A stretch of DNA of 64,000 bases from Escherichia coli (GTDB lineage Bacteria > Pseudomonadota > Gammaproteobacteria > Enterobacterales > Enterobacteriaceae), in NCBI RefSeq assembly GCF_030013595.1, contig NZ_CP122768.1; one strand, written 5' to 3'. The first letter of the stretch is position 1. Every line of letters starts with the position of its first letter. Of this stretch, positions 11,088-11,732 are shown one piece after another. Both the position numbers and the translations under genes were made by a program. A model generated the notes under the pieces. It searched no databases, was not told where the DNA came from, and was given only the letters and a program-made list of their open reading frames with translations.

Positions 11088-11118
11088 AAAATAAAAAAGC
11101 CACCTATTAGAAGGTGGC
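11088..11118 (-). terminator. rho-independent terminator of the moron
   Basis: Minus strand reads GCCACCT-tctaat-AGGTGGC followed by TTTTTTATTTT. Confidence 0.75.
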
Positions 11119-11138
11119 CTTGTAATGAATTTTATTAA

Positions 11139-11669
11139 TTAGCGAGTCAGAAACAACGAATCTTTATACTTTTGCTGTTGTTCATTTAAATACTTAGCTG
11201 TTTCATCGCTGGCAAATGGAAATATTACCGTATTTTTAGGCATGGTAATTTCTTTTTTGTCCAGCGTCAGAGTAAACATAGGAACATACTGAGCAGAGTA
11301 ACGCACCGCAGAAACGAGCTCTAGTTTAGACTCTTCAATAACACTTAAATTATCCTGGCTAACTTTCTCTTCATCTTTTTTCTTTGACGCATTTAAAGTT
11401 TTTATTACTTTATTTAATTTCTCCTGAAAATCCTCCTTAAAGTTTTCAGGATTGCCGTCGACAACAAGAATCTGTTCACCCTGATTATCTGGAAAAATAA
11501 TCTTTGCACTTATCAATTTATTTTCTTTATAAACATCACCAAGTTTTATGGCTCCTCCAGATAACTGAATAATATGTTCATCTTTAAAGGAGATGTTGCC
11601 AGAGATTATGAGAGATGAAAAAATAGCCGCTGCTCCAAGAATTACACTTGCTGTGATATAGCCTTTCAT
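11139..11669 (-). CDS. N-terminally membrane-anchored, Lys/Glu-rich exported protein; moron inside the tail cluster
   Basis: MKGYITASVILGAAAIFSSLIISG forms a TM/signal anchor. The island is clearly AT-rich between GC-rich tail genes, with its own promoter-like and terminator sequences. Confidence 0.7.
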   Translation of the reverse strand: MKGYITASVILGAAAIFSSLIISGNISFKDEHIIQLSGGAIKLGDVYKENKLISAKIIFPDNQGEQILVVDGNPENFKEDFQEKLNKVIKTLNASKKKDEEKVSQDNLSVIEESKLELVSAVRYSAQYVPMFTLTLDKKEITMPKNTVIFPFASDETAKYLNEQQQKYKDSLFLTR

Positions 11670-11704
11670 TTTTCGCCTATTAACATTTTTCTAAATGTGC
11701 ATTA

Positions 11705-11732
11705 ATTCTATCACTCTATTTATGACTTACAA
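11705..11732 (-). promoter_or_regulatory. candidate sigma70 promoter of the moron
   Basis: Minus strand reads TTGTAA, 16-nt spacer, then TGaTAGAAT (extended -10), about 35 nt upstream of the ATG. Confidence 0.45.

Follow-up and report, generated by a model that had tools for sequence, protein, structure and literature searches.

An AT-rich cassette encoding a predicted exported protein between the tape-measure and DNA-circulation genes of an SfV/e14-family prophage in Escherichia coli

Anatomy of the cassette and its product

We analysed a 64,000-nucleotide stretch of Escherichia coli DNA (contig NZ_CP122768.1 of assembly GCF_030013595.1; hereafter the window) and focused on a small open reading frame (ORF) in the tail operon of a prophage, which lies between the tape-measure gene and the gene for a Mu gp43/N-like 'DNA circularisation' or baseplate hub protein (hereafter the DNA-circulation gene, or gp43). 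A preliminary description of this DNA, made from its letters alone, had placed here a 176 amino acid (aa) protein with an N-terminal membrane anchor and a Lys/Glu-rich exported domain, in an AT-rich island with its own promoter and terminator, and had suggested a superinfection-exclusion or envelope-modifying factor. The ORF and the start of its product, MKGYITASVILGAAAIFSSLIISG, matched that account (Table 1). The island was equally evident: GC content dropped to 0.31–0.39 over positions ~11000–11800, compared with 0.53–0.63 on both sides, and by gene it was 34.3% in the ORF, 51% in the tape-measure gene and 56% in the DNA-circulation gene. The same anatomy recurred in all cassettes examined, including five homologous loci. 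Each had a GC content of 0.34–0.42 versus 0.47–0.58 in its neighbours, an upstream spacer of ~60–90 bp and a downstream hairpin, among tail genes that otherwise abut or overlap. The spacers of homologous cassettes measured 61–83 bp, comparable to the 91 bp of the window.

Comparisons with relatives confirmed that the ORF is a real gene. The phrog_5485 profile covered residues 1–176 of the 176 in the protein (E 1.5e-107), a profile search yielded 79 clusters of homologues, and nonsynonymous differences between diverged copies were rarer than synonymous ones (see below).

The predicted N-terminal anchor was a property of the whole family. In all 54 aligned members we found a hydrophobic segment with a positive-inside bias: its mean Kyte-Doolittle value was 2.17 over 19 residues, the median uncharged run was 20.5 residues, and the net charge was +1.0 before the segment and −0.8 after it. 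The exported part of the window protein contains 20 Lys, 14 Glu and 10 Asp among 152 residues, for which 'Lys/Glu-rich' is a fair label. These signals are explained most economically by a type II (N-in, C-out) inner-membrane protein whose periplasmic domain comprises ~150 aa; the segment may instead be the unusually long hydrophobic core of a cleavable signal. A lipoprotein of the Cor, Llp or Ltp type was also considered and rejected, as the window protein has no Cys and a lipobox-like motif occurred in just 2 of the 54 members.

An AlphaFold2 model of high confidence (predicted local distance difference test, pLDDT, 91) consisted of a transmembrane helix followed by an alpha/beta domain. The predicted elements of the domain are a beta-hairpin (residues 33–42), strands 46–58 and 65–72, a helix (74–93), strands 114–126 and 132–143, and a final helix (149–171). 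Three residues, G39, G44 and Y124, were invariant across the 54 diverged members. No structural counterpart of the predicted domain was found in the PDB. The sole significant structural neighbour in Foldseek searches was a BFVD model, A0A2H4P829 (E 1.9e-6, template-modelling scores 0.55/0.65), from Pseudomonas phage ventosus. This protein is likewise phage-encoded and exported, but it shares 15% identity with the window protein, is annotated as a lipoprotein rather than carrying a signal anchor, and is uncharacterised.

The promoter candidate in the spacer has a −35 element TTGTAA (11732–11727), a 16-nt spacer and an extended −10 element TGaTAGAAT ending at 11705, and would place a transcription start near 11697. 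It was 98.9–100% conserved in six E. coli carriers and only loosely conserved in Leclercia. Downstream of the gene, the terminator hairpin folded at −15.6 kcal/mol (z = −3.9), and none of 200 shuffled sequences was as stable. The preliminary description was right that a strong hairpin with a U-run follows the gene, and wrong to assign it to the insert. An arrangement of hairpin, TTTTTTAT, Shine-Dalgarno (SD) sequence GGAG and gp43 ATG was common to the window, phage SKA5, phage SfII and a Leclercia prophage; SfII has it at a junction without any cargo, which ruled out an insert-specific terminator. The stem sequence differed between relatives, while the position and the trailing TTTTTTAT were kept. 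Because the hairpin holds its position with and without cargo, the late tail operon has a terminator in its middle, either a fixed part of the backbone or a scar left by earlier cargo. Rfam searches of the cassette gave leader- or terminator-like hits only, all below threshold, and we therefore propose no riboswitch or small RNA.

Table 1. Positions of the cassette, its neighbours and related junction features (window coordinates unless a locus number is given)
Feature	Sequence	Position	Strand	Remarks
176-aa ORF, phrog_5485 member	window	11139..11669 (stop included)	minus	predicted bitopic inner-membrane (N-in, C-out) or exported protein
N-terminal hydrophobic helix	window	11601..11666 (codons 2–23)	minus	signal anchor or uncleaved signal peptide; AlphaFold2 helix 2–23
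Predicted periplasmic alpha/beta domain	window	11157..11573 (codons 33–171)	minus	
AT-rich non-coding spacer, 91 bp	window	11670..11760	minus	tape-measure stop to ORF start; holds promoter candidate and weak SD (AGG)
Sigma-70-like promoter candidate	window	11705..11732	minus	pattern scan, 9/12 positions + TG
Rho-independent terminator	window	11086..11121	minus	10-bp stem AAGGCCACCU/AGGUGGCUUU, 6-nt loop, U-run; directly upstream of DNA-circulation SD
Junction hairpin	window	11084–11121		
Junction hairpin	L002	3188–3226		
Junction hairpin	L001 (SKA5)	3179–3268		
Junction hairpin	L004	8526–8582		
SKA5 alternative cargo WQM42337.1	L001 (SKA5)	3269–3781		phrog_8976 (no function given); 31% GC; contains Cys
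Tape-measure gene, 610 codons	window	11761..13593	minus	PF10145, phrog_28/17727; upstream of ORF
DNA-circulation gene (Mu gp43/N-like)	window	9749..11077	minus	PF07157 DNA_circ_N, phrog_184; downstream of ORF
Prophage remnant downstream of icd	L008 (Lelliottia amnigena)	7633–8570		last 41 tape-measure codons, intact homologue and hairpin
Hotspot region with two extra small ORFs after the homologue	L012/L013 (Lonsdalea)	6637–7330		
DDE transposase/insertion sequence	window	24354–25562		directly against HNH/terminase genes
Truncated-looking integrase, 304 aa	window	25605–26519		adjoins icd
icd	window	26633–27883		
Pin/Gin-type invertase	window	3304–3894		
Tail-fibre assembly gene	window	4286–4717	plus	
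Tail-fibre assembly gene	window	4689–5294	minus	
274-aa ORF	window	2422–3246	plus	LEM-3-like GIY-YIG nuclease domain

Family and distribution

A profile search against 1.84 billion representatives returned 79 clusters at 50% identity, 50 of them at E < 1e-10, and the full-length members were nearly all 165–200 aa long. The named members came from Escherichia, Leclercia, Lelliottia, Edwardsiella, Mangrovibacter, Lonsdalea, Pectobacterium and Pseudomonas, and all were annotated as 'hypothetical'. The family corresponds to phrog_5485 (/phrog_34391), a PHROG without function that was also matched by the distant homologues P0041, P0060 and P0084; to that entry we add here topology, a structural model, context and distribution. 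The preliminary description had not recognised the family, and the searches agreed with it. Scans of the protein against Pfam, NCBIfam and PADLOC gave no family, nor did Pfam on all 54 aligned relatives; PADLOC-DB 2.0 gave no hit to a defence-family model at E up to 1; and PDB searches by single sequence and by profile returned noise only. Few distant members were recovered by a protein word-index search with broad alignment, a scan of species-representative genome contigs yielded one locus only (Edwardsiella), and IMG/VR held no loci for two distant subfamilies. Searches of the literature for the RefSeq accession, and for morons between tape-measure and DNA-circulation genes, gave no specific result. 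The moron in the SfIV paper was considered as the same element and set aside, as it lies in a different region.

Presence of the gene at this junction was polymorphic. The isolated phages SfI, SfII, SfV and vB_EcoM-689R6 lack the ORF; both flanks matched the window, with 381 bp in place of its 1001 bp. In SfII, a short spacer with an annotated terminator is all that separates the tape-measure stop from the gp43 start, and the SfII tail proteins are 95–100% identical to those of the window. The preliminary description had suggested a comparison with Mu-tail prophages that lack the insert, and these four phages, which join the tape-measure and DNA-circulation genes directly, are relatives without it. 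The gene is thus not a tail component conserved in all relatives.

Among 5426 complete E. coli genomes, 177 (3%) carried the ORF, always at an identity of at least 99%, and the flanking junction sequences were matched in 1088 of the genomes. The carriers came from many animal and human sources. Their cassettes were 99.2–100% identical and the flanking tail genes 96.4–98.7%; the lower divergence of the cassette fits a recent spread by recombination. The gene was also encoded on many IMG/VR proviral contigs. In one carrier the copy lies on a 19-kb circular 'plasmid' record made of tail genes (NZ_CP148394.1, locus L024), possibly a piece of a prophage that was excised or misassembled.

The same junction can also hold an unrelated cargo. 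At this position phage SKA5 encodes another protein, of 170 aa, that begins with a signal sequence, and SKA5-type cargo was found in 85 E. coli genomes. Like the window gene, it is AT-rich, of similar size, endowed with an N-terminal export signal and followed by a hairpin and TTTTTTAT. Unlike the window protein, the SKA5 protein has Cys residues and looks as if it carries a cleavable signal peptide. It was tried as a remote homologue and rejected (hhalign probability 0.6%).

Beyond the E. coli carriers, four further lineages had homologues with 53, 38, 33 and 34% identity at the same junction; three are represented by Leclercia, Mangrovibacter and Lonsdalea prophages and the fourth by a metagenome contig. 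Identity to the window fell in parallel for the gene (53/37/33%), gp43 (63/57/48%) and the sheath gene (75/68/66%), suggesting that the divergence of the gene roughly tracks that of the backbone. The word 'inserted' in the preliminary description, taken as a recent event, does not survive this comparison, since homologues of 33–53% identity hold the same junction in four other lineages. The gene is better described as an old, fast-evolving resident of a cargo hotspot that is often lost or replaced. Between the lone copy in Lelliottia (see below) and the Leclercia prophage copy, the proportion of nonsynonymous differences (pN) was 0.12 and that of synonymous differences (pS) was 0.74, indicating strong purifying selection on the family between diverged copies.

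In the Lonsdalea hotspot, the homologue is followed by two extra small ORFs. One encodes 119 aa (phrog_4293), and the other encodes 83–109 aa and resembles, weakly, an XhlA/hemolysin-like small membrane protein.

Genomic context was informative in 13 lineages, seven of which had the gene as an immediate neighbour of a tape-measure gene; three different arrangements occurred. Five lineages have the order of the window (tape-measure gene, homologue, DNA_circ gene). At locus L114, the homologue stands between a tape-measure gene with an SLT domain and a Dit-like gene in an E217/Pam3-type myovirus cluster, and at L109 it lies between the tail chaperone and tape-measure genes on the opposite strand, where it must have its own promoter. 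At L015 it was found inside an E217-type baseplate cluster, ~2 kb past the tape-measure gene. Other copies lie beside a resolvase gene in Pseudomonas, beside an IS3 element in Pectobacterium, and in accessory regions of proviral contigs beside umuC or beside an HTH-M78/DUF4411/methylase cluster. In Lelliottia amnigena, a homologue lies directly downstream of icd with a tape-measure remnant (Table 1), and no other phage gene was detectable in 16.5 kb. Such lone copies mean that the unit can persist without a phage.

Proposed role of the protein and competing explanations

The cassette is very probably an accessory moron for an exported protein. Presence and absence at a single junction, deviant GC content and a following terminator (the latter also present without cargo) are all traits of morons, and as a kind of element it is a classical one; its protein family has no relative of solved fold.

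For the role of the protein, we favour superinfection exclusion at the step of genome entry across the inner membrane, to which we assign a probability of about 0.35. We favour it because the protein would face the periplasm at the inner membrane, because the gene is repeatedly adjacent to tape-measure genes, and because of the precedent of HK97 gp15. The unit would comprise the spacer with its promoter candidate, the gene and the terminator, all within the tail operon of a defective SfV/e14-family prophage. The resident prophage would be the source of the protein, and late in lytic growth read-through would probably supply it as well. Its predicted build is a short N-terminus in the cytoplasm, a single transmembrane helix and an alpha/beta domain of ~150 aa in the periplasm. 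It would not be part of the virion, and would therefore act only in a prophage-carrying cell or late in infection. It is at the inner membrane that an incoming tail needs its tape-measure and hub proteins to open a route for DNA. Positioned at the outer face of that membrane, the protein could bind the incoming tail tip of related contractile-tailed phages, through their tape-measure or hub/spike proteins, and binding would stop the formation of a DNA channel across the inner membrane, as for HK97 gp15.

Morons in tail operons are familiar elements, and for one of them, HK97 gp15, an exclusion function is proven; gp15 is reportedly a YebO-like superinfection exclusion protein, described by Cumby et al. 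in 2012. The gp15 moron lies beside the tape-measure gene, and its product becomes inserted in the inner membrane and prevents genome entry, an effect that depends on the tail of the incoming phage (PMC3594210). The gp15 unit and the window cassette are alike in being small, in lying in a tail operon beside the tape-measure gene, in the terminator that follows them and in their deviant base composition, and both proteins are single-pass inner-membrane proteins, the window protein by prediction. They differ in that gp15 has 62 aa and almost no periplasmic domain, whereas the window protein has 176 aa with a predicted folded periplasmic domain of ~150 aa, and in that gp15 is encoded upstream of a siphovirus tape-measure gene, whereas the window gene lies downstream of one in a contractile-tail prophage. 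Homology to gp15/YebO was rejected after the family profile was aligned to gp15 with hhalign (probability 0.3%). Other phage-encoded membrane or periplasmic proteins that stop delivery of an incoming genome include T4 Imm and Sp, P22 SieA, the Cor/Llp lipoproteins and Ltp of TP-J34 (PMC3594210, PMC10883804), and some of these envelope exclusion proteins are encoded beside the tail gene they counter. SNIPE, an inner-membrane defence protein, associates with tape-measure proteins during injection (PMC13190303).

Several points weigh against the exclusion model, which is argued by analogy. A tblastn search of 50,697 phage records found no isolated phage with the gene. The adjacency to tape-measure genes amounts to about three independent cases only, because five of the seven share one ancestral arrangement, and junctions with a terminator in a tail operon may simply be permissive insertion sites. 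Five of the 13 contexts lacked tail genes nearby. The promoter named in the preliminary description exists as a pattern, but its frequency is at chance level: the 5-kb region contains 4 such patterns versus 4.8 expected from shuffles, so the match by itself is not above chance. Islands of 34% GC are, moreover, typical targets of H-NS in E. coli; AT-rich islands are often silenced by it, and this one may be silent.

A possible, still tentative alternative is that the protein serves lysogenic conversion or host fitness and has nothing to do with phage exclusion; it would alter the envelope or protect the lysogen. It might act against toxins that reach the periplasm (colicins, effectors of type VI secretion systems, tailocins), relieve envelope stress or aid colonisation. 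An exported or membrane-anchored topology would suit this role, as would the alternative cargo of the junction, which is likewise exported. The maintenance of the lone Lelliottia gene under purifying selection, and the copies in Pectobacterium and Pseudomonas that have insertion-sequence or resolvase neighbours and no phage tail, also fit a benefit to the cell, and the carrier E. coli come from varied animal and human hosts. However, the protein has no similarity to a known immunity protein, adhesin or envelope factor, and a host-fitness role leaves the repeated adjacency to tape-measure genes in unrelated tail modules unexplained.

The protein could also serve late in the phage cycle, made by read-through of the tail operon rather than from the lysogen, and protect the progeny or the envelope or aid release. 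In most lineages the gene and the tail genes share a strand; the gene holds the same junction down to 33% identity, and its divergence roughly parallels that of the backbone. In addition, because the junction terminator is a feature of the backbone, late transcription must read through it in any case and would co-express the gene. Yet SfI, SfII, SfV and 689R6 form plaques without the gene, which is thus dispensable; SKA5 has an unrelated replacement; and the gene also occurs on the opposite strand (L109) and in lone and non-phage copies. We consider a late function improbable.

We think it quite improbable that the gene is merely cargo, neutral or selfish and at present without function, which persists by hitch-hiking and by recombination between conserved flanks. 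Its patchy distribution, with 3% of E. coli genomes and one match among species-representative genomes, would be expected of such cargo, and so would a cassette that is less diverged than its flanks in E. coli. Neutrality is at odds with the strong purifying selection (pN 0.12 versus pS 0.74), with a confidently predicted fold and invariant residues over 54 diverged members, and with the intact state of the ORF in decayed prophages. Finally, a role in the structure or assembly of the Mu-like tail, as a position inside the tail operon and synteny in several lineages might suggest, is effectively refuted by the absence of the gene from the closest functional phages, a transmembrane anchor that marks the product as exported, a base composition foreign to the operon, and lone, reversed and non-phage copies.

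A broader proposal builds on exclusion at the inner membrane: the protein would be the founding member of an unrecognised family of inner-membrane exclusion proteins with a periplasmic domain of new fold, found in prophages of Enterobacterales and Pseudomonas, acting on the tape-measure or tail-tip proteins of contractile phages, and kept in genetic linkage with the tape-measure gene so that the tail module carries its exclusion specificity along. Taken as a whole, we regard this proposal as doubtful. To our knowledge, few such exclusion proteins have been described for contractile-tailed temperate phages, and how the tape-measure and hub proteins of contractile phages cross the inner membrane is poorly understood. 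The family is a compact and testable candidate, with one gene of 176 codons, a confident model and a recurring link to tape-measure genes, and natural plus, minus and replacement controls exist in phages that can be grown (SfII, SfV and SKA5). Should the protein prove to block entry, phage mutants that escape it would directly identify the tail component at work at the inner membrane; otherwise the gene would join the other uncharacterised genes of lysogenic conversion.

The resident prophage and neighbouring genes

The prophage belongs to the SfV/e14 family and lies at icd, the e14 attachment region of E. coli. Its tail module is that of Shigella and E. coli phages of the SfV/SfI/SfII group, in which lambdoid heads are combined with Mu-like contractile tails. 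Around the two genes that flank the cassette are the sheath, tube, chaperone and gp44-, gp45-, gp46- and gp47-like genes, tightly packed or overlapping. The true start of the DNA-circulation gene is the ATG at 11077, given the alignment of relatives and the position of its SD sequence (GGAG, 11084–11087); it displaces the GTG at 11083 of the mechanical ORF list.

The prophage is defective, because the tape-measure gene contains an amber codon and the early region has been lost to an insertion sequence. This element, in the region 23673–27883 that also holds the integrase gene and icd, occupies the expected place of the early, regulatory, immunity, replication, Q and lysis genes, and beyond it follow the HNH, terminase, head, tail, tail-fibre and invertase genes. 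The amber codon (codon 256, 12826–12828) is a change from CAG, present in six relatives, to TAG, and it splits the tape-measure gene into ORFs of 255 and 339 aa. An amber-to-Gln change of this kind would be corrected in a supE host. The ORF of the cassette is nonetheless intact in this defective prophage, and matches its counterparts in six further E. coli genomes at 99.2–99.8% identity.

The Pin/Gin-type invertase gene lies beside two opposed tail-fibre assembly genes, an arrangement that points to a host-range segment capable of inversion, like those of Mu, P1 and e14. Past the invertase, ORFs 808–1233 and 1549–2070 had no Pfam match, and a third ORF encodes the nuclease-domain protein listed in Table 1. 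The ORFs at 808–3246 may be cargo of the prophage end or defence genes.

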